Below are positions 17,242-28,220 of a DNA stretch of 64,000 nt, one piece after another (the stretch's first letter is position 1; each line of letters starts with the position of its first letter). Origin of the DNA: Planctomycetota bacterium (GTDB lineage Bacteria > Planctomycetota > UBA8108 > SXIK01); the NCBI GenBank assembly GCA_965223845.1, contig CBDCXR010000004.1, forward strand, positions 7,712,001 through 7,776,000. The letters run 5' to 3'. The position numbers and the translations under genes were made by a program. The notes below the pieces were generated by a model. The model was not told the origin of the DNA and did no database searches. It saw nothing but the letters and a program-made list of their open reading frames with translations.

Positions 17242-18900
17242 TCAACGATTCAGATTGTACTTGTTGATCTTGTTGTAGAGGCTCGTCTTCGGCACGGCGA
17301 GCTTCTTCGCGACGAGGCTCTTATTCCCTCGGCACTCGACGAGCGACGCGCGGATGATCTGCTCCTCGACCAGCTCGACGGCCTGTTTGAGAGTCAAGTC
17401 GACGAGATTCGTCTTCAACTCGGCGAGCGTCGTCTGCTCCGAGCCGCGGAGAAGAATGGTCTCGGAGAGCGCATCGACGCCGATCTCTCCGTCCGAGAGC
17501 GCATAGAGGCGCTTCACCTCGTTCTGGAGCTCGCGGATGTTTCCCGGCCAGTCGTATTCCTCGAGCTTTTCGAGGGCGCGCGAATCGATCTCTTTGTGGT
17601 CGCCGTGCTCTTCGTCGAGGACCTGGAGAAAGTGGCGGACGAGGTCCGGGACATCCTCGCGTCGTTCGCGGAGCGGCGGCAGCTTCAGGTTGATCACGTT
17701 CAGGCGGTAGTAGAGGTCCTCGCGGAAGTTCCCCTGCCGGACCTCTTCTTGCAGATCCTTGTTCGTCGCCGAGATGATGCGAACGTCGACGTCGATGAGC
17801 TCCTTGCCGCCGACTCGCCGGACGACGTTTTCCTGAAGGACTCGGAGGAGCTTTTTCTGCATCGTCGGGCTCATGTCGCCGACCTCGTCGAGAAAGAGCG
17901 TCCCTCCCGTCGCGAGCTCGAAGAGGCCCTTACTGTCTTTCGTGGCGCCGGTGAACGCGCCCTTCATGTAGCCGAAGAGCTCGCTCTCGAGCAGCGTTTC
18001 GGTGAGCGCGCCGCAGTTCTCCGAGATGAAGGGCTGGTCGCGGCGGGAGCTGTTTCGGTGAACGGCGTTCGCGATGAGCTCCTTCCCCGTTCCGCTTTCG
18101 CCGTTGATGAGAACGGGCGCGTTCGACGTCGCGATGCGATCGAGAATTTGAAAGATCTCGATCATGCGCGGGCTGTTCCCGACGATGATCGAATAGTCGC
18201 CGGCGAGGTCGCTCCGCTGCGCCTGCTTCCCGCGCCGCACCGGCGTCGGGACCTCGAGTGCGGTCGCGGTGGCGGTCGGGGGCTGTTCGCGGAGACGCGC
18301 GACGTCTCCCCAGAGGGAGCGGTTCTCGGCTTGCAGTCGGTCCTGGGCGAGCATCCCGGCGATCACGTCGCACTGAATGCGGACCACCCGGAGCCGATCC
18401 GGGTCGGTGTGGAGCTCGCGGAACCGGTTCTCGACCTGAATGACCGCGTCGACTCCGCGCGGTCCGACGATCGGGAGTGCGAGCAAATGCGGCTCGCGCT
18501 CCTTCGACGCCAAGTAGCCGCTTCGCACGACGGCGGCGGTGATCGCCGGGTCGATCTTTTTCTCCGGCTGCTGAACGCTTTCGCCGTCGACATCGATCGC
18601 GACGAGACAGTTCGCGGCTACCCGGCCGGTCGTCACCGCCTCCTCGCCGTTCGTCGCGAGCAAAAACGCCCGCTCCCCGCCGAGGAGCTGAAGGAGATCG
18701 AGAAGCAGCGATGCGACCGCCGGCGGCGCGTCGCCCTCAGCGGCGCGTTCGGACTCGGCATCGTCGGGTCGACGGAGGAGCGCGGAGGCGCGCATCGCGT
18801 GGTCGAGCATCGACGCGGGTCTTTCGAGGCCGGACCAGATATCGTTCCACTGCTGGTCCGGGGTGGTGACCGGCGTCGCTTTCGAGCTCTGTTCGTTCAC
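17242..18900 (-). CDS. Sigma54-dependent enhancer-binding protein (GAF-like + AAA+ + Fis HTH)
   Basis: GESGTGKE, ESELFGYMKGAFTGA, FLDEVG, FREDLYYRLNV, WPGNIREL; start placed at GTG 18900 after a GAGGAG RBS. Confidence 0.9.
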   Translation of the reverse strand: MNEQSSKATPVTTPDQQWNDIWSGLERPASMLDHAMRASALLRRPDDAESERAAEGDAPPAVASLLLDLLQLLGGERAFLLATNGEEAVTTGRVAANCLVAIDVDGESVQQPEKKIDPAITAAVVRSGYLASKEREPHLLALPIVGPRGVDAVIQVENRFRELHTDPDRLRVVRIQCDVIAGMLAQDRLQAENRSLWGDVARLREQPPTATATALEVPTPVRRGKQAQRSDLAGDYSIIVGNSPRMIEIFQILDRIATSNAPVLINGESGTGKELIANAVHRNSSRRDQPFISENCGALTETLLESELFGYMKGAFTGATKDSKGLFELATGGTLFLDEVGDMSPTMQKKLLRVLQENVVRRVGGKELIDVDVRIISATNKDLQEEVRQGNFREDLYYRLNVINLKLPPLRERREDVPDLVRHFLQVLDEEHGDHKEIDSRALEKLEEYDWPGNIRELQNEVKRLYALSDGEIGVDALSETILLRGSEQTTLAELKTNLVDLTLKQAVELVEEQIIRASLVECRGNKSLVAKKLAVPKTSLYNKINKYNLNR

Positions 18901-19436
18901 GCGATTCTCTTCTCCTCGAAGTGCTCCCGCGCCCGCATGCGATGACGAGCGTCCTCCGATGGAATCGGTCGCCGACGCACTCTCTCTTCGCCGCGAGTCG
19001 AAAACGGAACCTCGGGCGCGAAGCGAGCGGTCGGGGTCCGGGCTCTCCGCCGGCGAACTCGACGCGCCGGAGCAGGGCGACGGGAGAACTGCCCGTTCGG
19101 AGGAGAAGAGTACCATCTCGGCCCCGAATCGGCCGGTCGGGCGGCTCGAGGGGGCGCTCGCCGCGTCTCCGGGCTTTTCCTTGCTCCGATGCCTCTGCGG
19201 AGGTAGAGCTCGAGGTTCCGGGACGGCGAAGAATCCTCGCTGCGCGAGGCGTGGAGGTGACGTCCGGTCGCCGCGCCGCGGCACCGCCGAACTCGAGTAA
19301 AGAGCCGAAACGATCCTTCCGATATCGAAGGAGCACCGCGCGCCTCGGATACGAACGTCTCACCTCACGAACCGTTCACTGCGGCGTCCGGGGTCGTCGC
19401 GCGCAACTTCCGAACCGAAGCTCGAGGACTCGAACC

Positions 19437-19925: not shown

Positions 19926-21344
19926 GTGACGATCGGCGCAGAGGAGTTGGCTGCGCTCGCTCGAGACGCGCTCGACCTCGCCGTTGGCGCGCGAGTCGAG
20001 AACGTTCACGTCTCTCCTGGTGACGTCGTCACGCTCACGCTCTATCAGCGCGGGCGCGGCAAGGGCTTCCTGCTCTTCTGCCTCGAGCCCGAGCTCCGCC
20101 GGTTTCATTTCGTCGCGCACCGACCCCCGGCGCTCGCGGAGGCGTCAGCAGCCGCGAAAACGCTGCGGCGCCATCTCGCTAGGCAACACATCGAGCGACT
20201 CGACTGGAACGAGCGCGGGCTCTGCCTCGAGTTCCCCGAAGGTCTCGGTCTGCGCGTCGATCTCCTTGCGAACTCGCCGCGTCTTCGCCTAGAGCGCGGT
20301 GGCGAAGCTCTCCTCGAGGTCGCCGCGGGCAAGCTCGGTCCGGGGGGCGGTGACGTCGCGGCCGCCGAGCGGACTCGCGCCGGTCTCGTACCGGCGTCGC
20401 ACGCGCGAGTCGCGGCGCGCTATGCGGACGTCGAGAAGGACGTTCACCTCGAGGCGGCGCGGCAGTCGCGTCTGCGCTCCCTCACCCGGGCGCGGCGCCG
20501 TCAGAGGCGGCTCGTCGACAACCTGCTCCGCGATCGCCAGCGAGTCGATACCGCGTCCGACGCTCTCCGCGAGGGCGAGTTGCTGAAGTCCGCGCTCGGA
20601 TCGCTGAAGCGCGGAATGACCGAGGTTGAGATTCCCGATTACTACGCCGAGGGGGCGCCGCTTCGGCGGATTCTCCTCGATCCGCGCCTTTCACCGATCG
20701 AGAACGTCGAGCGGCGGTTTCGCCGTTACAAGAAGCGCGAGCGCGCGCTGCCGATCATCGCGAAACGTCTCGCGCGTGCCGAAGACGGAGCGCGCGAGAT
20801 CGCTTCGCTCCGGGAGCGCGTGGCCGCGGCGGAGTCGATCGAGGAGCTCTCCGCTCTCGACGCGGCGATCTCGCGCTTCGCCCGGGAGAAAGGAGTCCGC
20901 CAGAAAGGCGCGGCTCGGACGGCGAGAGCCGGGCCTCGTCGCTTCGTCTCGGCCGATGGCATCGAGATCCTCGTCGGACGAAACGCCCGTGGGAACGACG
21001 AGCTGACGTTTCGCATCGCGCGAGGAAACGACCTCTTCCTTCACGCGAGCGGCGTCGTAGGCTCGCACGTTATCGTGCGCGCCCCCGTCGAGTCGGTCCC
21101 GCCGGAGACTCTCATCGACGCGGCGCATCTCGCCGTCTACTACAGCGGACCGCGGCGCGACCGCGTCGCAGCGGGCGGCGAGGTCGATTACACGTCCGTG
21201 AAGCACCTCCGGCGGGTGAAGGGCGGACCGCCCGGGCGGGTCCTCTTTACGGATCACCGCAGTCTTCGCGTCCGCTGGGAGCCCGAACGATTCGCGCGAC
21301 TGCGCGGCGAGGACGCCGATCCGCCGCGAGGCGAGTCCCGTTGA
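19926..21344 (+). CDS. NFACT / RqcH (FbpA-DUF814) ribosome quality-control family protein
   Basis: LDPRLSPIENVERRF..YKK coiled-coil region and NFACT-R motif ILVGRNARGNDELTF..DLFLHA..GSHVIV. Confidence 0.85.
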   Translation: MTIGAEELAALARDALDLAVGARVENVHVSPGDVVTLTLYQRGRGKGFLLFCLEPELRRFHFVAHRPPALAEASAAAKTLRRHLARQHIERLDWNERGLCLEFPEGLGLRVDLLANSPRLRLERGGEALLEVAAGKLGPGGGDVAAAERTRAGLVPASHARVAARYADVEKDVHLEAARQSRLRSLTRARRRQRRLVDNLLRDRQRVDTASDALREGELLKSALGSLKRGMTEVEIPDYYAEGAPLRRILLDPRLSPIENVERRFRRYKKRERALPIIAKRLARAEDGAREIASLRERVAAAESIEELSALDAAISRFAREKGVRQKGAARTARAGPRRFVSADGIEILVGRNARGNDELTFRIARGNDLFLHASGVVGSHVIVRAPVESVPPETLIDAAHLAVYYSGPRRDRVAAGGEVDYTSVKHLRRVKGGPPGRVLFTDHRSLRVRWEPERFARLRGEDADPPRGESR

Positions 21345-21453
21345 TGGAGCGTGCGCTCGAAGCACCAGAGGAAGCGGGGGGCGCGAGGCGGCGGAACGCG
21401 TAAACACGGCCGGATTCTCGCGCTCGGAGTACGCGCCGCGCCCCGCTGTAACA

Positions 21454-21482
21454 TTGACCTGCCAACAGAGTTATGCTACGAT
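21454..21482 (+). promoter_or_regulatory. Sigma70-type promoter
   Basis: TTGACC-N17-TACGAT with an extended -10 TG, in an AT-richer intergenic patch. Confidence 0.55.
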
Positions 21483-21600
21483 TAGAAGTCTCTTGAGCCC
21501 GCCGTCCGGCGCGGCTCCTCTCCGAGAGAAATCAGAAGAGTTCAGCCGAAGAGTACCGACGAGTATCGCCGTCGATACCACTGCCGACGAGGTTCCCGCT

Positions 21601-22308
21601 ATGTCTGCAGCGTGCCGTCCGTTCGTCCGGGTAGCTGCTTGTTCCGTGTTCAGCGTTCTCCTCTTTTCCTGCTCCGGCTCGGAGAAGCTCTCGGTCACCG
21701 AGAAGGCCCGCCGGATCACCGAGAAGCGCGCGGAGGCGAAAAACGCCTACGACGCGTACGTGAACTCCGACTACACCGATCTCGAATCGCTTCAGGCTTG
21801 CGCGGATGCCTACGTCGAGTCGACCAAGATCGCGCCCGGAAGCTGCAATCTCTGCTTCTACCACGCCGGTCGCGCGCTGCGGGCGGTTGGGAATCACTAC
21901 CGCACCCTGATTGCACAGCTCGATGAGGAGCGGCGGCGCGGCGGCGACGCGAGCGCCATAGAGAAAACGGTCGAGAGTTACCGGGAGCTCGTGCGCGAAA
22001 ACTACCGCGAATCGAATCGGATGTACCAGTCGTACTTCCGTCGCGAAGGCACCTACGCGCATCCCGACGCCCATCTCGACTCGGTCGACAACTTCGCCCA
22101 GCTCGGTGAGTACGATCGAGCGCTTTATCACCTCGGTGTGTTCGAGGAGATCATCGACGAGCGGAGCCAGCTCGGCGAGACGAATCGCACCGAGATCGCG
22201 CGGCTGCGTCGCACACTCGAGACGCGCCGGCGCGTCGCAGAGGATCGGCGCATCGAAGAGGAACTCTCGGAAACGGACCGAGACCACCGTCCGCGCTTCA
22301 GCAACTGA
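21601..22308 (+). CDS. Predicted lipoprotein, helical/TPR-like
   Basis: Lipobox-like LLFSC after a hydrophobic stretch; helical body with a CNLC motif. Confidence 0.65.
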   Translation: MSAACRPFVRVAACSVFSVLLFSCSGSEKLSVTEKARRITEKRAEAKNAYDAYVNSDYTDLESLQACADAYVESTKIAPGSCNLCFYHAGRALRAVGNHYRTLIAQLDEERRRGGDASAIEKTVESYRELVRENYRESNRMYQSYFRREGTYAHPDAHLDSVDNFAQLGEYDRALYHLGVFEEIIDERSQLGETNRTEIARLRRTLETRRRVAEDRRIEEELSETDRDHRPRFSN

Positions 22309-22723
22309 TCGCGTTTCGCAATCAGGGGCGGACAAAGCTGCCGAACGCATCGAGCCGTTTCCCGACGCGATGCGCGTTCCCATCGGGCGGCGGGGACGGA
22401 CCCGCTCCGATCGCGGCCCTCGCACGGGCCGGAAATGTGTGACGCCGCCGGAGCCGCAGCTTCCGCGCGAGGCCGGTACGGCCTTCCGCTCCTAAGCCGG
22501 TCTGGCGCGGTCCGTTTGGCGGTCCCTGAGGGCGATGCTATTCTTCGATACCCCGAAGGAAGCCGGCGGGTTCCGCCCGCGGATCGGCTCCTTTGGGACC
22601 GAGGTGCATCCTCTACTTCGGACGCATCGCCACTCGACCTTTCGAGGTCATCCCGCCTTCGCGGGCGACGATCCCCGTCGCCCGCTTCGCCCCAGCCCGC
22701 TACGGATACTCCGGACTCTGCCC

Positions 22724-23578
22724 ATGCCGGAAGCGATCGACATCAAGAGTGTCATCCAGGGTAGCACCTGCGATATGACCGTGGACTCCCTCACGAAGAA
22801 GGGAGTGAAGCAGGTCAAGGTCCTCAATCAGGCCACGATCACTCGATTGATCTCCGAAACGATCGACCAGGTGCTCGCGGAGCGTTCGGAGGACATCAGT
22901 GCGCGCGAGCGGCAGCGAGTCGCGGCGCAGGCGCAAGACCGGCTGCAAAACAGCATCGGCGATCTCGCTCGTCTCCGCGCGCAGGTGGCGCAACTGACGG
23001 AGTCGAACAAGGCCTACTCGGAGGAACACGACCGTCTCCGGACGCGCCTCCAGTCGCTCGTCGACGCCCAGGCCGAGCGCGACCAGCTCTCGCAGCAGCT
23101 CCAGTCGTCGCGCGAAGAGATTCTTCGGCTCCAGCGGTCTTCGGCGAGCGCGTCGGAGGCAGCGGTCGAGCTCGAATCCTCACGGCAGCGCGCGGCGCAG
23201 CTCGAAGGTCAGCTTACCGCGCTCACGCAGCAGCTCTCGCAGCTTCAATCGAGCGCCGGCTCGAGCCCGGAGCTCCAGCAGATTCTGGAATTGTTGAGCA
23301 CCAAGTCGGACGGCAGCGCGCAGGCCGGCGGCGACGTCCTATCGGCGCTCACGAAGCTCACCGAAAAGGTCGAGCGAATCACGGCCAGTGGTGGAAGCGG
23401 TGGAGCCGGCGGATTCGCGGATATCGCACCGCCGGATGAAACGGCTCTCGAGTTCCTCGTGAAGGGCGAGGGACCGGTCGAGAGCAATATCGACACCGTC
23501 GAAGTGAAGAAGAAGTCTGCGGGTGACGTTAAAGGCGCCCTCGCCAAACTGAAAAAGCTTCAACAAGGAGGAGAGTAA
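22724..23578 (+). CDS. Coiled-coil protein coupled to the actin-like gene
   Basis: Long Q/E/L heptad region; amphipathic C-terminal helix DVKGALAKLKKLQ; TAATG overlap and AGGAGGAG RBS for the next gene. Confidence 0.8.
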   Translation: MPEAIDIKSVIQGSTCDMTVDSLTKKGVKQVKVLNQATITRLISETIDQVLAERSEDISARERQRVAAQAQDRLQNSIGDLARLRAQVAQLTESNKAYSEEHDRLRTRLQSLVDAQAERDQLSQQLQSSREEILRLQRSSASASEAAVELESSRQRAAQLEGQLTALTQQLSQLQSSAGSSPELQQILELLSTKSDGSAQAGGDVLSALTKLTEKVERITASGGSGGAGGFADIAPPDETALEFLVKGEGPVESNIDTVEVKKKSAGDVKGALAKLKKLQQGGE

Positions 23579-24639
23579 TGTCACAAGGCACCGATGGCGG
23601 TTCCCAGGTAGCGGAGCCAGTCGCCGGGGGCGCGGCGGTGGGCGGCGGTCAGTTCGCTCCGGGTCGTGGCCTGGATGTCGGTACGGCCAACTTGGTCAGC
23701 AGCGTGCAGGATCATTCCGGCAACGTCACGATCAAGATCCAGCGGAACGCCTTTATCGACGTCAACGCGGACGACTACACGAAGAACATGCTCTCGAAGC
23801 TGAACGTGCAGTACGTCGTCATCGACGGTCGCATGATCGTCGTTGGTGACCCCGCGTTCGAGCTCGCGAACATCCTCAACAAGGAAACGCGGCGTCCGAT
23901 GAAGGACGGCGTGATCAGCCCCGCCGAAGCGGACGCGATGCCGGTCGAGAAGATCATCCTCGCGAATCTGCTCGGTGAGCCGAACTTTCCGAAGGAGAAG
24001 GTGTACTACTCGGTTCCGGCCGACCCGATCGACGCCGACTTCAACGTCGTCTATCACAAGGGCGTGTTCGGTGGGCTCCTGAAGAAGCTCGGATACGCAC
24101 CGAAGCCGCTCCAGGAAGGGCACGCGGTGGTTTTCTCCGAGCTCGCCGAAGACGATTTCACCGGAATCGGAATCTCCTGCGGCGGCGGAATGTTCAACAT
24201 CTGCGTCGCGTACAAGTCGATCCCCGCGCTCACCTTCTCGACGAGCAAGGGCGGCGACTGGATCGATCGCAATGTCGCGACCGTGCTCGGGATCAAGGCC
24301 TCCCGCGCGACGGCGATCAAGGAGCGCGGAGTCAATCTCCTCAGCCCGCGGAATCGCGAAGAGGAAGCGGTCGAGATCTACTACCGAAACCTGATCTCTT
24401 ACACGCTCGAGTCGATCAAGAAGCGCTTCGAGTCGTCCGAGGGCATGCCCTCGTTCCCCGAGCCGGTCGAGATCGTCTGCGCGGGCGGGACCTCGATGAT
24501 CGGTGGCTTCGTCGAGATCTTCCAGGACGAGTTCGAGTCGATCAACTTCCCGATCGAAGTGAAGGGAATCCGTCGCGCCGACGATCCCCTCTTCAGCGTC
24601 GCGAAGGGTTGCCTCGTCGCCGCCCTCTCGGACGTCTGA
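23578..24639 (+). CDS. Actin-superfamily ATPase, volactin-like (not MreB/FtsA)
   Basis: Phosphate-1 GLDVGTAN, phosphate-2 GISCGGG, GGDWID, adenosine AGGTS, C-terminal SVAKG; NKETRRPM and PADPID segments recalled from haloarchaeal volactin. Confidence 0.8.
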   Translation: MSQGTDGGSQVAEPVAGGAAVGGGQFAPGRGLDVGTANLVSSVQDHSGNVTIKIQRNAFIDVNADDYTKNMLSKLNVQYVVIDGRMIVVGDPAFELANILNKETRRPMKDGVISPAEADAMPVEKIILANLLGEPNFPKEKVYYSVPADPIDADFNVVYHKGVFGGLLKKLGYAPKPLQEGHAVVFSELAEDDFTGIGISCGGGMFNICVAYKSIPALTFSTSKGGDWIDRNVATVLGIKASRATAIKERGVNLLSPRNREEEAVEIYYRNLISYTLESIKKRFESSEGMPSFPEPVEIVCAGGTSMIGGFVEIFQDEFESINFPIEVKGIRRADDPLFSVAKGCLVAALSDV

Positions 24640-24686
24640 TCAGGCGCCGCCTCGGCTCCGACGAGCCGAGGGGAAGATGAACTCTG

Positions 24687-24731
24687 CCGCGAGCTCCCGA
24701 TGCCGAAAGCTTCCGGGGCTCGCGGTTTTTT
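24687..24731 (+). terminator. Intrinsic terminator after the actin-like gene
   Basis: CCGCGAGCTCC pairs with GGGGCTCGCGG followed by T6; second hairpin CCTCGGCTC/GAGCCGAGG at 24650-24671. Confidence 0.6.
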
Positions 24732-24826
24732 CTTGGTTCGTGGCCTCGAGTTCAGCCGCCGGCGAAGCCGCGGACTTCACCGGATTCGGTGCGCGCAACG
24801 ACGACGCATCGATGCTCTGTTCCCGG

Positions 24827-25861
24827 TCACGACGTCGCGGTCGCATCGGGTGGGGACTGCGGCCGCCCGGAATCGACGCGCTCCGAAGTGCCTTCCGCAG
24901 CCTCCCTCTCCTCGTCTTCCGCCATCTTCCGAAGTGCGCGTCGAAAGCGAATCCGGTGTCGCACGATCGCTGCGACGGCGAGGATCGCGCTCACGGTCCA
25001 AAAGTTGAGGAGTCCGATGATCGACCACGGAAGCGAGCTCCGGGCGGCCAGCCAGTCGGCGAACGCGTCGTCGAGCTCACTCTCCGCGACTCCCGTCACG
25101 CGCGCGAGTCGGGCGTGCGAGTCGCCGCCGCGGACGCTCTCGACGAGTCGCGGAACGATTCCTTCACCGTGCCGCTCGACGAGGAACTCGATCCAGGCGT
25201 AGCTCTGAAGATACGCGAGCGAGCTCTGTCGGTGTGCGCGGGGAAACTCGTCGCGGAGCTTCTCGAGCGAGTAGATTCCGCCGACGCGCGCCGCGATTCC
25301 GAGATGGGATTCGTCGCTCGGCGACGGACGATGATCCGAGACCCACATCGCGAGGCCTTCGTCTAGCCAGCGAGGGATCTCTTCCGCGCCCTGATGGAGG
25401 ATGAGATGCGCGATCTCGTGACGGAGCGTCTCCGCGAACGGGCTGTACCTGAGAATCAGCCCACCGCGGAGAACGAGGGTCCTCAGTGACGGAACTGCGA
25501 CGCCCACGGCGCCTTCGGGAGGCGATCCACCGCGGGTGAGCTGACCCACGACGCGGCGAAACTCGGGGTCGTCCGGTGTGAGGACGACCCGGATCGGAGT
25601 CTCGAGCTCTCGACCCAGCCGGGTCCCGATCTCACCGGCCACGCGGGGCAGCGACTGGCTCAGTCGCTCGACTTCGCTCTCCGACCAGCCCGTCGCGTCG
25701 ATCGGGCCCACCGCCGACGCGGTCCGGGTGTACCCCTCGAGTGGGACTCCGCCGAGCTGAGCGACGAGCGCGACGATGGCGAGAGCAGAAGCGATCACCG
25801 CACGTGCCTCCGAGCTGATTCGAGTCGATCCAACGCCAACAGACCCCGCCGATGCTGTCAT
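24827..25861 (-). CDS. Peptidase MA-like zinc metallopeptidase, membrane-anchored
   Basis: LRHEIAH (HExxH) followed by PRWLDEGLA; N- and C-terminal hydrophobic helices. Confidence 0.8.
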   Translation of the reverse strand: MTASAGSVGVGSTRISSEARAVIASALAIVALVAQLGGVPLEGYTRTASAVGPIDATGWSESEVERLSQSLPRVAGEIGTRLGRELETPIRVVLTPDDPEFRRVVGQLTRGGSPPEGAVGVAVPSLRTLVLRGGLILRYSPFAETLRHEIAHLILHQGAEEIPRWLDEGLAMWVSDHRPSPSDESHLGIAARVGGIYSLEKLRDEFPRAHRQSSLAYLQSYAWIEFLVERHGEGIVPRLVESVRGGDSHARLARVTGVAESELDDAFADWLAARSSLPWSIIGLLNFWTVSAILAVAAIVRHRIRFRRALRKMAEDEEREAAEGTSERVDSGRPQSPPDATATS

Positions 25862-25923
25862 TCTGACGCACGCAACTTGTTGTTCAACGTCCGGGTTCTA
25901 TAATCGGGCCTTCGACTGTCAGA

Positions 25924-26745
25924 ATGGCTGGCAAGCGAACTCGACGCGATGGGGGGCGACCATTGAGTGAGACCGTGGATACCCGCGGGAGCGGATCGAG
26001 CGACTGGGACTTCGACGTCGCCGCGATGGCCGGGAGCCTCGTCCACGAAATCAAGAATCCGCTGAGCACGATCGGGATCAACGCGCAGCTCCTCCTCGAG
26101 GAGTGGAAGGATGCCGAATCGACCCGCGAGCTTCGCGCGCGGAAGCGTCTCGAGATCATCTCGTCCGAAGTGCAGCGTCTCGAGGGCATCGTCGAGTCGT
26201 TCCTCCGCTTCACCGAGCGCCACGAGCTTCGGCGAGAGCCGACGAATCTGAACGATCTCGTCACGGATCTCGAAGAGGTGAGCGCATCGAAGGCGGCTCA
26301 GAGCGGCGTGACGACGCTTCTCGGGCTCGATCCCGATTTTGCGCTCGCCGACGTCGACCCCAGTCTCGTGCGTCAGGTCGTGCTCAACTTGATCTTGAAC
26401 GCGATTCACGCCATGGCGGAAAGCGGGGGAGAGTTGATCCTCCGCACGCGGGCGGTCACGCGCGACGGTACGCCGTGGTGCGTGGTCGATGTCGTCGACA
26501 CCGGCTGCGGCATGAGCGAGCGCGTCCGGGAGCGCGTCTTCGACCTCTATTACTCGACGCGACGCGACGGGAACGGACTCGGCCTCGCAACGTCGAAGCG
26601 CATCGTCGATGAGCACGGAGGGTGGATCGAAGTCTCGAGCGAAGAAGGGAAAGGGAGCCAGTTCAGCGTCTATCTTCCGGTCGCGCCGGCGGGCGCGGGA
26701 ACGCAGGATCCCGGCGCGGAGCCGAGCGAGACGGAGGCGAGCTGA
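25924..26745 (+). CDS. Soluble histidine kinase (HisKA + HATPase) without a sensor domain
   Basis: H-box VHEIKNPL, N-box NLILNAIHA, DTGCG, GNGLGL; possible TATAAT -10 at 25899-25904. Confidence 0.9.
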   Translation: MAGKRTRRDGGRPLSETVDTRGSGSSDWDFDVAAMAGSLVHEIKNPLSTIGINAQLLLEEWKDAESTRELRARKRLEIISSEVQRLEGIVESFLRFTERHELRREPTNLNDLVTDLEEVSASKAAQSGVTTLLGLDPDFALADVDPSLVRQVVLNLILNAIHAMAESGGELILRTRAVTRDGTPWCVVDVVDTGCGMSERVRERVFDLYYSTRRDGNGLGLATSKRIVDEHGGWIEVSSEEGKGSQFSVYLPVAPAGAGTQDPGAEPSETEAS

Positions 26746-28220
26746 TGGCGAAAGCCGACGAGAAAAAGACCCAACTCGCGATCGTGGACGAGCCGGCAGA
26801 AGCCGAGACGTCGTTTCCGCGCGAGCCGGAGCCCGCGTCCGACGAAAGCGACCGCAGCTCGGACGATTCCTTGGGGCGCGTTCTCATCGTCGACGATGAT
26901 CCGCACCACGCCGAGAGCACCGCCGACGTCCTCAGCACGGTGGGATACCGGTGCGACACGGCCGGGAGCGCAGAAGCTGCGCTCGAGCGGCTCCGCGAAC
27001 GCGAGTACGACCTCGTCCTCACCGATCTCGTCCTCGGCGATTTAGACGGTATGGAGGTCCTTCGCGGTGCGCTCCAGATCAATCCTCTCATCGCGGTCAT
27101 CGTCTTCACCGGCCACGCGACGGTCGAGACCGCGGTCGAAGCGTTGAAGCGCGGCGCGGTCGATTACCTCATGAAGCCGCTCAACATCGACGGTCTTCGC
27201 ATCCGCGTGAAGAAGGCGCTCGAGCGGCAGGAGCTCGTCCGCATCAACCGCGACCTCGAGAAGCGCCTCGACAGCAAGTTCGGTTTTGAAGGCATCATCG
27301 GCAACAGCGAGCCGATGCGCGAGACGATCGAGCTCATGAAGCAGATCGTCGACACGGATGTCTCGGTGCTGATCACCGGCGAGAACGGTACCGGGAAGGA
27401 GCTGATCGCGCGCGCGATTCACGAGAACAGCGGCCGGCGTCACCGCGCGCTCGTTCCGCTCAACTGCGCGGCTCTCTCCTCGCAGCTGGTCGAAAGCGAA
27501 CTCTTCGGGCACGAGAAGGGAGCGTTCACCGGCGCGCAGAACCAAAAGAAGGGGCGGTTCGAGTTCGCGAACCACGGGACGCTCTTTCTCGACGAGGTGG
27601 GGGACATCCCGATCGACACCCAGGTCAAGCTCCTCCGCGTGCTCGAGTCGGGCGAGGTGATGCGCGTCGGATCCAACGAGGTGATCCGCGTCGATGTTCG
27701 GTTGATTTCGGCGACGAACCGCGACCTCGAGCAACTCATCGCCGAGGGGAAGTTTCGCGAGGACCTCTACTACCGACTCAAGGTGGTGACGATCCACCTT
27801 CCGCCGCTCCGCGATCGCGGTCCCGACATCACGCTTCTCATCGACCACTTCGTCCGCGAGTTCGCGCGAATCTACAAGAAGCCGATCACCGGGATTACGC
27901 GCGAGGCGATCACCGTGCTTCAGACCTACCGCTGGCCGGGGAACGTACGCGAACTGAAGCACGCGGTTGAGAACATGGTGGTCGTCTCCCGCGGTCCGGT
28001 GCTCGGGGTCGACAGCCTGCCGCAGAGCATTCACCGCGCCGAGAAGGTCGCGAGCGTCGGGCTCGGGTCGATCGTGGGAATGACCAGCGAGGAGCTCGAC
28101 CGGGAGCACGTCCGGCTCACGCTCGAGCACGTCGGGGGAAATCGCCAGGCGGCCGCGAAGATGCTCGGCATCGGAGAGCGGACGCTGTACCGTAAGCTGA
28201 ATCGCTACGGGCTGTCGTGA
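26745..28220 (+). CDS. NtrC-family sigma54-dependent response regulator
   Basis: Receiver VLIVDDD..LTDL..KP; GENGTGKE, ELFGHEKGAFTGA, WPGNVREL, HTH; TGATG overlap with kinase stop. Confidence 0.95.
   Translation: MAKADEKKTQLAIVDEPAEAETSFPREPEPASDESDRSSDDSLGRVLIVDDDPHHAESTADVLSTVGYRCDTAGSAEAALERLREREYDLVLTDLVLGDLDGMEVLRGALQINPLIAVIVFTGHATVETAVEALKRGAVDYLMKPLNIDGLRIRVKKALERQELVRINRDLEKRLDSKFGFEGIIGNSEPMRETIELMKQIVDTDVSVLITGENGTGKELIARAIHENSGRRHRALVPLNCAALSSQLVESELFGHEKGAFTGAQNQKKGRFEFANHGTLFLDEVGDIPIDTQVKLLRVLESGEVMRVGSNEVIRVDVRLISATNRDLEQLIAEGKFREDLYYRLKVVTIHLPPLRDRGPDITLLIDHFVREFARIYKKPITGITREAITVLQTYRWPGNVRELKHAVENMVVVSRGPVLGVDSLPQSIHRAEKVASVGLGSIVGMTSEELDREHVRLTLEHVGGNRQAAAKMLGIGERTLYRKLNRYGLS

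Follow-up and report, generated by a model that had tools for sequence, protein, structure and literature searches.

A Volactin/Mad28-family actin of Planctomycetota encoded together with a conserved, modular candidate adaptor

Cell division and cell shape in planctomycetes do without FtsZ, and little is known of the cytoskeleton of these bacteria. What, then, is the function of an actin-fold gene that overlaps a coiled-coil gene on a planctomycete chromosome, and what does its coiled-coil partner do? The two genes lie at 22724..24639 of a stretch of 64,000 nucleotides (G000:C4:7712001-7776000; we call this whole stretch the window and number positions from its first letter) in a Planctomycetota genome of 7.9 Mb, assembled in 4 contigs and 91.7% complete. 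A first-pass annotation, made from the sequence letters alone, had read them as an uncharacterized bacterial cytoskeletal module consisting of a filament and an anchor or nucleator. The actin proves to be a planctomycete variant of the known Volactin/Mad28 kind; what is new is a modular adaptor and, with it, a candidate volactin-binding motif common to bacteria and archaea. We think it probable that the locus encodes a filament-forming actin and a dedicated modular adaptor whose C terminus binds that actin, tying its filaments to a cargo or an anchor.

The second gene (23578..24639, plus strand; P0001, 353 aa) carries all four motifs that the first reading had picked out (GLDVGT, ISCGGG, GGDWID, and AGGTS), and its product is a full-length member of the volactin family. 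It scores 291.4 bits against the Pfam profile Volactin (PF25216; cut-off 35), with residues 30 to 349 spanning positions 3 to 321 of the 321 in the profile, and a scan of the whole genome with PF25216 returned it as a single copy (291.3 bits). The protein is not MreB, MamK, FtsA, salactin, or BeeR. Pfam FtsA (22.6 bits versus a cut-off of 31.8) and MreB_Mbl (18.4 versus 27) both remained below threshold, as did the NCBIfam models of MamK (29.9 versus 400), ftsA (20.8 versus 175.85), and MreB (13 versus 293), while NCBIfam salactin and BeeR gave no match at E ≤ 1 and no sugar-kinase or Hsp70 family of Pfam or NCBIfam matched. An MreB identity was rejected on its two scores and on the lack of mreCD genes beside the actin. 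Among PDB sequences, the best that a search could find was an E value of 0.016 to MamK.

Structure prediction places the protein among filament formers. We aligned it with 79 of 150 listed representatives (80 rows, 320 to 390 aa), and the AlphaFold2 model built on that alignment has a pLDDT of 93.5 and a pTM of 0.91, with residues 1 to 28 disordered. The best solved matches in Foldseek are MreB/Mbl, the MamK filament 5ljv (TM 0.69/0.74), and the BeeR filament (0.68), at 17 to 21% identity; all are polymerizing actins, and no solved chain in the Foldseek library is more than 21% identical to the window actin. The replacement of the usual phosphate-2 Asp by Ser, claimed at first pass, is a property of the family: S200 is nearly invariant across the 80 sequences (the ≥90% class), D33, G35, T36, R106, P107, G202, G204, G226, D227, D230, and G304 are likewise conserved in ≥90%, and G303 is invariant. 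Every signature of the family (D-x-G-T, the phosphate-2 Ser, RRPM, GGDWID, and GG-T/S) is present in the window actin. The volactin segments named at first pass also fit when set against a Haloarcula volactin: PADPID is identical, SELA..FTG.GIS and SVA.G agree, and NKETRRPM corresponds to EETRRPM. Two relatives have been studied experimentally. Volactin filaments are dynamic and contact the membrane with their tips, and no binding factors of volactin are reported to be known (PMC10869688); Mad28, with the same Asp-to-Ser change, forms filaments in cells and polymerizes in vitro with ATP-gamma-S (PMC10653835). By analogy with both, the window actin would form filaments.

The family is large and, in planctomycetes, widely carried. 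A search of 1.84 billion representatives recovered 1,171 proteins at E ≤ 1e-3, 826 at ≤1e-10, and 378 at ≤1e-30; the best 120 of 3,048 matches all have PF25216, at 71 to 89% identity, and the records that supplied the close homologues bear the title Planctomycetota. The PF25216 cut-off was exceeded in 114 of 301 sampled Planctomycetota genomes, including closed genomes that are 99 to 100% complete, and presence is in places all-or-none by planctomycete family (7/7, 15/15, and 10/10 in positive families; 0/7 and 0/10 in negative ones). Over 62 bacterial loci, identity to the window actin runs from 54 to 91%, that of the partner only from 21 to 45%. Homologues also occur in haloarchaea (42% identity over 92% of the length, the Haloarcula protein reaching 447 bits on PF25216), which we sampled as the best 80 of 285 relatives, six Haloferax records among them, and in records titled Nanoarchaeota (46 to 47%). 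One further protein, P0149, had been taken as haloarchaeal from its acidity; its related locus proved to lie in one halophile-like planctomycete metagenome-assembled genome (MAG).

The phylogeny that had been proposed as a check was inferred from 81 rows: the window actin, 16 planctomycete, 6 Omnitrophota, 10 haloarchaeal, 2 Nanoarchaeota, and 2 phage sequences, 36 of the 150 representatives, and 8 outgroups (the genome's own MreB and MamK-like protein, E. coli MreB and FtsA, two Omnitrophota MamK, and two further actin-like proteins). It was computed in the quick mode of IQ-TREE, with SH-aLRT support values and no bootstrap, and the row L050 volB was left out. A support of 97 divides the 73 family rows from the 8 outgroups, so that the family stands apart from MreB, MamK, and FtsA and groups neither with MreB nor with actin-fold enzymes. 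Haloarchaeal volactins form one clade (99) that excludes the window actin, which joins the other Planctomycetota and the two Omnitrophota paralogues in a bacterial clade (96). Because it occurs in 114 of 301 genomes, is conserved at 54 to 91% over 62 loci, and has an adaptor of its own, the planctomycete volactin system is probably a major, unstudied cytoskeletal system; closed carrier genomes mean that cultured strains may allow genetics.

The partner gene (22724..23578, plus strand; P0002, 284 aa) matches no Pfam family. It runs from an ATG at 22724, a start that the alignment of homologues supports since they begin at the same place, to a TAA at 23576-23578, and the actin ATG (23578-23580) has one base in common with that stop codon. 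This is the TAATG overlap reported at first pass; with an AGGAGG at 23566-23571, the junction (23566..23580, plus strand) has the makeup of tight translational coupling, and the two genes are one translationally coupled unit. Among 51 loci, a possible actin start overlaps the partner stop in 17 and lies 0 to 6 nt after it in 22 (39/51), and is more than 30 nt away in 12. The pair recurs in dozens of genomes, so the arrangement is not due to chance. The unit ends, as had also been claimed, in an intrinsic-terminator-like hairpin and T-run (24686..24731, plus strand): a hairpin of 12 pairs at 24686-24726 followed by six T at 24726-24731, which a simple terminator scan missed because the loop is too long for it. 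Folding over 24640-24735 has a z-score of −3.57 and is matched by 1 of 200 shuffles. A second strong hairpin, of 9 G+C-rich pairs, stands at 24647-24673, directly 3' of the actin stop codon and before the terminator hairpin.

An alignment of 33 partners resolves the protein into a conserved N terminus of ~95 residues, a coiled coil of variable length, and a conserved C terminus of ~50 residues; a Pfam scan of the same 33 found only coiled-coil noise, with any one family in at most 4 members. The N-terminal domain (residues 1-95; 22724..23008, plus strand) has invariant L23, G27, and V33. AlphaFold2 (pLDDT 77.5) models it as small and helical, followed by a long helix at residues 60-178 (22901..23257, plus strand), a Gly-rich linker, and a last helix at 268-282; in blocks of 10 residues, pLDDT is 89 to 98 over 61-170, 76 over 51-60, and 81 over 171-180. 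The length of the long helix varies between homologues, for which reason we take it to be, presumably, a coiled-coil spacer or dimerizer. The C-terminal module (residues 232-284; 23417..23575, plus strand), with invariant E253, N255, L273, and L276, holds the candidate volactin-binding motif.

Both ends recur beside the actin across the bacterial loci. When hidden Markov models (HMMs) of the two ends were run on six-frame open reading frames (ORFs) of the 62 bacterial loci, the N-domain was found in 56, directly upstream of the best actin match in 53; of the other three, two precede a tandem pair of paralogues and one is part of an ORF that continues into the actin. The C-module was found in 58, directly upstream of the actin in 54; among the loci with no module match, two have no upstream DNA. 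A tblastn search with the partner had missed 7 of the 62 loci, most of which the HMMs recovered, and a protein search with the partner alignment returned at least 43 proteins, which is not a family size since coiled-coil words dominate the candidates. Two Omnitrophota loci, L038 and L049, carry the C-module on a coiled-coil gene that follows the second actin (E 7e-8 and 2e-7), and the HMM of the partner N-domain found nothing in the Omnitrophota loci. The conserved partner on which the first-pass reading depended thus exists.

Several variants of the locus occur. Some Planctomycetota have two tandem volactin paralogues behind one partner (L045 4013-7046, L050 2485-5383, and L052 1493-4541), the second being 624 to 674 aa long, extended at the N terminus by a conserved stretch, and closing with a tail whose last residues are D-L-P-L-I-S. 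The proteins P0127 (669 aa) and P0268 (522 aa) start with the partner N-domain and continue into a volactin domain, as natural fusions or merged gene calls. In the Omnitrophota loci L038 (2395-7130), L049, and L051, a ParA/MinD-type ATPase and a first coiled-coil protein precede two volactin-type actins in one operon, and a second coiled-coil protein follows them. Two huge uncultured phages, of 485 kb and 595 kb, encode volactin-family actins 41.6% and 35.5% identical to that of the window (L167 3001-3957 and L168 3001-3993); one groups with an unnamed representative (support 99), and neither module HMM matched at E ≤ 1 in either phage locus (3-kb flank).

A check of synteny across both domains of life had been proposed, and in archaea, too, the actin has a regular upstream neighbor. 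Volactin is immediately preceded by the gene for a DUF7139 protein (~300 aa, four transmembrane [TM] segments, 139 bits) with an acidic tail in 58 of the 80 haloarchaeal loci; of the 20 loci with no DUF7139 match, 6 have too little upstream DNA. The tail of this protein aligns with the bacterial C-module over 29 columns in hhalign (score 29.4, P = 2.6e-5, probability 74.9%). Column shuffles of the DUF7139 tail averaged 9.2 and peaked at 16.4, so that 0 of 200 reached 29.4, and the reversed tail scored 14.2. When the bacterial C-module HMM was run on 4,789 archaeal six-frame ORFs, the upstream gene took nearly all the top places, at weak E values (best 0.0047). In Haloferax massiliensis (L094 1978-5877) the genes run DUF7139, volactin, a CPxCG zinc-finger gene on the other strand, and a CetZ-like gene, an order that matches HVO_2016 to HVO_2013 and makes an actin and a tubulin homologue near neighbors; by synteny, HVO_2016 would be the DUF7139 gene beside volA. 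HVO_2016 moves in the same direction as HVO_2015, with a low error probability, in 3 of 5 proteome comparisons (PMC10869688). The shared tail motif thus bears on the binding factors of volactin in a tractable archaeon, and the link to HVO_2016 makes a direct test cheap.

The proposed prediction of the pair as a complex was run with the actin on its 80-row alignment and partner residues 222-284 on the 33-protein alignment. The three runs scored 0.58, 0.42, and 0.56 (median 0.56), versus 0.00 for the best of three controls, and they share at least 53% of contacts at a partner pLDDT of at least 44; the outcome counts as weak support. Of 157 solved complexes, 116 attained the mark for a complex on the same scale, as did 2 of 215 mismatched pairs; 18 of those solved complexes and both passing mismatches lay at ≤0.60. 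Since synteny, coupling, and the motif had already made binding likely, we count the fold as a modest increase in the odds that the module binds the actin.

A different line of evidence comes from the same genome. Among its 72,182 six-frame ORFs, the C-module occurs in one copy (the next E value is 7.6), and the N-domain has a second match (E 2e-6) in a 413-aa protein, P0372, encoded directly upstream of a MamK-like actin gene (C4:2154498-2155508). A profile comparison was needed to detect the relation: hhalign aligned the two N-domains over 61 columns (probability 94.2%, E 1.2e-7), where BLASTP of the partner against P0372 gave nothing (E 98). This second pair (G000:C4:2154498-2157378; L163 1411-3952, minus strand) lies 5.6 Mb from the volactin unit, its actin scoring 384 bits on NCBIfam MamK (cut-off 400) and 194.7 on BeeR and being flanked by a glycoside dehydrogenase-like gene and the adaptor. 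We collected 80 loci with MamK as bait, from records titled Omnitrophota or Planctomycetota/Phycisphaerae and a few generic or differently titled MAG records. Within their 1-kb flanks, the N-domain lies just upstream of the MamK-like gene in 23, the adaptors of MamK-like actins end in another conserved module, and the volactin-type C-module is found in 0 of the 80 at E ≤ 1. Profile comparison thus points to one adaptor scaffold that carries tails tracking the actin family, which is as expected if the tail is the actin-binding part. Such a swap of C-terminal modules between the adaptors of two actin families offers a rule for finding actin-binding peptides in bacteria.

These data suggest how the system might work. 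The second gene would supply a Volactin/Mad28-family actin that forms filaments, and the first an adaptor with three working parts: an N-domain, common to planctomycete actin adaptors, that presumably docks on a common cellular target; a coiled coil of variable length that would serve as spacer or dimerizer; and a C-terminal module of ~50 residues that would bind volactin-type actin specifically. The adaptor would in this way tie filaments, probably by their ends, to a cargo or an anchor, and in roughly half of the related loci the system may end at the envelope in a membrane Peptidase_MA_2 protein. The role of the window pair would not be related to magnetosomes.

Several points weigh against this reading. 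Polymerization of the planctomycete actin is argued from Mad28 and volactin, and its binding by the C-module, its localization, its cellular role, and a target for the N-domain are proposals. The link to Mad28 is indirect, running through MamK-bearing Omnitrophota genomes and the published Ser motif, not through the named Mad28 sequences of RS-1 and BW-1. The fold of the partner C terminus is uncertain, with pLDDT below 50 at residues 223-235 and 251-265, and the fusions P0127 and P0268 may be artifacts of gene calling or frameshifts. The motif shared with archaea is short, at 29 columns; a full-length profile comparison finds the same stretch with a probability of 12.5% (P = 0.0023), and two Lys/Leu-rich helices could have come to resemble each other by convergence. 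DUF7139 is missing from 14, mostly Halorubrum, of the 74 archaeal loci whose upstream DNA is long enough, which means that a DUF7139 partner is not obligatory. The complex score falls in the weak band and comes with no reported interface.

The anchor of the first-pass reading takes its most definite form if the amphipathic helix at the partner's C terminus is a membrane-targeting sequence of the MinD/FtsA type and the actin is bound elsewhere on the partner. A Lys/Leu-rich helix does occupy the last 15 residues (268-282), where the first pass had described an amphipathic helix at the end of the coiled-coil protein, and volactin filament tips touch the membrane (PMC10869688); both are what such an anchor would lead one to expect. 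The conserved module, however, reaches ~20 residues upstream of the helix, with the invariant E253 and N255 in a non-helical stretch, and the same module occurs in the cytoplasmic tail of an archaeal 4-TM protein, where a membrane-targeting helix would be redundant. The module also tracks the actin family, the adaptors of MamK-like actins having the N-domain but another tail, and the fold with the actin (0.56 versus 0.00 for controls) weakly favors contact with the actin itself. We consider a membrane-targeting tail improbable. The filament half of the first-pass proposal, with its actin family and conserved partner, therefore stands, whereas its terminal helix is better seen as part of a ~50-residue module that is likelier to bind actin than membrane.

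We hold to be comparably improbable a segregation system like ParMRC, in which the partner would be an adaptor of the ParR or AlfB kind, its N-domain binding DNA, and the actin would move DNA as salactin does in Halobacterium. The architecture does parallel ParR, with a small N-terminal domain and a C-terminal actin-binding peptide; a ParA/MinD-type ATPase is present in the Omnitrophota operons; and salactin, an archaeal actin acting in DNA partitioning, is a precedent (PMC10869688). Automatic names such as "chromosome segregation ATPase" exist for such proteins but reflect the coiled coil only. Yet the 415-bp upstream region (22250-22760 scanned) has no iteron-like array, only short repeats in 2 copies, no ribbon-helix-helix (RHH) or helix-turn-helix (HTH) family was found in the 33 partners, and NCBIfam salactin does not match the actin at E ≤ 1. 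The locus is single-copy, chromosomal, and carried by whole planctomycete families, and in archaea the module belongs to a membrane protein.

Far less probable still is that the actin is a genuine Mad28 at work in the magnetosome system of a magnetotactic planctomycete. Its clade is closest to Mad28-type genes of MamK-bearing Omnitrophota genomes, mad genes have been reported in Planctomycetota (PMC12713370), and this genome has a MamK-family match of 384 bits. That match, however, is below the 400-bit cut-off, 5.6 Mb away, and among unrelated neighbors; no mam or mad gene occurs among the neighbors examined (about 17.2-30.6 kb of the window), the genome not having been scanned for other magnetosome genes; and volactin-type actins occur in 114 of 301 sampled Planctomycetota genomes, MamK-like genes in 80 loci of ordinary Planctomycetota and Phycisphaerae records. 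A non-polymerizing actin-fold ATPase (a chaperone, kinase-like enzyme, or regulator) with an unrelated coiled-coil neighbor has in its favor the loss of the phosphate-2 Asp to Ser and is equally hard to credit, as the Ser is family-wide and Mad28 polymerizes with the same change (PMC10653835), the nearest solved folds are filament formers, no sugar-kinase or Hsp70 family matches, and 54 to 91% identity across a phylum beside a coupled adaptor is typical of cytoskeletal proteins.

If the C terminus of the adaptor binds the actin, as we favor, a bolder version can be framed, which we regard as possible but doubtful. Under it, the ~30-residue motif of the planctomycete adaptor, the Omnitrophota coiled-coil protein, and haloarchaeal DUF7139 would be a universal volactin-binding motif that recruits filament ends to the anchor of each lineage; interchangeable C-modules on one scaffold would wire volactin- and MamK-type actins to the same target; and, with the MA peptidase, the volactin system would guide envelope remodeling or division in FtsZ-less cells. 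Were this so, the ~30-residue motif would be a prokaryotic counterpart of short actin-binding peptides.

The genes around the unit add a possible third component. A Peptidase_MA_2 protein (24827..25861, minus strand; 45.6 bits) with an HExxH motif and a hydrophobic segment at each end, hence two TM segments, is inverted in the window and converges on the actin gene; by the positive-inside rule, its domain would face outward. By tblastn, 34 of the 62 other loci have its gene 3' of the actin, co-oriented in 33, and it is inverted only in the window and its closest relative, L002. The neighbors (about 17.2-30.6 kb of the window) further comprise NFACT (19926-21344; syntenic in 29 of 62 loci), a hypothetical protein, a histidine kinase, sigma-54 activators, and DnaK; as claimed at first pass, no mreCD, ftsZ, or par gene lies beside the unit. 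Two sigma-54-dependent activators and the histidine kinase flank it (17242-19284, minus strand; 25924-26745 and 26622-28220, plus strand). The downstream histidine kinase and sigma-54 regulator are syntenic in 6 to 9 of 62 loci, all close relatives, and we treat them, like NFACT, as a conserved neighborhood and not as parts of the unit. No sigma-54 promoter pattern occurs at 22309-22723 (30 matches in the whole window versus 28.2 expected), a sigma-70 promoter scan returned 0 sites, and an Rfam search of 21000-26000 returned 0 matches; among sequencing runs looked up for 22500-24800, none from RNA was listed.

Elsewhere, the genome has its own MreB (414.6 bits), with no FtsA above the cut-off and, at 91.7% completeness, no match to tubulin or FtsZ, in line with the first-pass remark on a group lacking FtsZ. 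It has at least four actin-fold cytoskeletal candidates: MreB, the MamK-like actin, a 763-aa ORF (248 bits on MamK), and the volactin type. The literature that we searched holds no description of the planctomycete pair, the adaptor domains, or the shared motif and does not name PF25216 or DUF7139; on planctomycete actin-like proteins it yielded only the Mad28 papers and a preprint on a homologue of lokiactin, another actin.

How, finally, does the pair compare with known actin systems? MreB with RodZ and MreCD has a similar fold (TM about 0.6 to 0.68) and, as may be the case here, a link to envelope proteins, but the window actin falls short of its profile (18.4 bits versus 27), has no mreCD neighbors, and coexists with an MreB encoded elsewhere. 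In ParM-ParR and MamK-MamJ, as proposed here, the gene for a filament-forming actin lies next to that of an adaptor dedicated to it, with ParR contacting its actin through a terminal peptide. Those actins belong to other families (NCBIfam MamK 29.9 versus 400), however, and the window adaptor is encoded upstream and not downstream; unlike ParM-ParR, the window locus is chromosomal, phylum-wide, and devoid of centromere repeats.

Volactin itself (VolA, HVO_2015 of Haloferax volcanii; PF25216) is of the same family at full length, with common motifs that include the phosphate-2 Ser and a related tail motif on the upstream gene. It differs in belonging to a separate clade (99 versus 96 for the bacterial one), in having a 4-TM DUF7139 protein upstream instead of a soluble coiled coil, and in adjoining a zinc-finger gene and CetZ5, where the window has a coiled-coil adaptor and an MA peptidase. 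Orthology of the window actin with VolA, the disk-shape actin, was rejected on its position outside the haloarchaeal clade and its different neighbors, and the disk-shape role is not transferable from one to the other.

Probably closer is Mad28, found with the coiled-coil proteins Mad25 and Mad26 in deep-branching magnetotactic bacteria, magnetotactic Omnitrophota among them (PMC10653835, PMC12713370). It is bacterial, has the phosphate-2 Ser, forms filaments, and in a two-hybrid assay interacted only with coiled-coil Mad25 (bioRxiv 10.1101/2025.02.24.639979); the window actin likewise combines the Ser with a coiled-coil partner. With the volactin-type actins of the three Omnitrophota loci it shares 58 to 60% identity and a clade, and the genomes of L038 and L051 carry a true MamK (439 to 440 bits, cut-off 400), one on the same 125-kb contig; the L049 genome gave no MamK match. 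A MamK-bait scan aimed at magnetotactic Desulfobacterota and Nitrospirota genomes returned only Omnitrophota and Planctomycetota. The window unit differs in having no magnetosome context among the neighbors examined, and in Omnitrophota the C-module is on another gene and the N-domain is absent. The first-pass description of an uncharacterized bacterial module is therefore right about a conserved module of actin and partner but too strong in treating it as wholly uncharacterized in bacteria: its nearest relatives with experimental data, to judge from these sequence comparisons, are probably bacterial Mad28 and not archaeal volactin.

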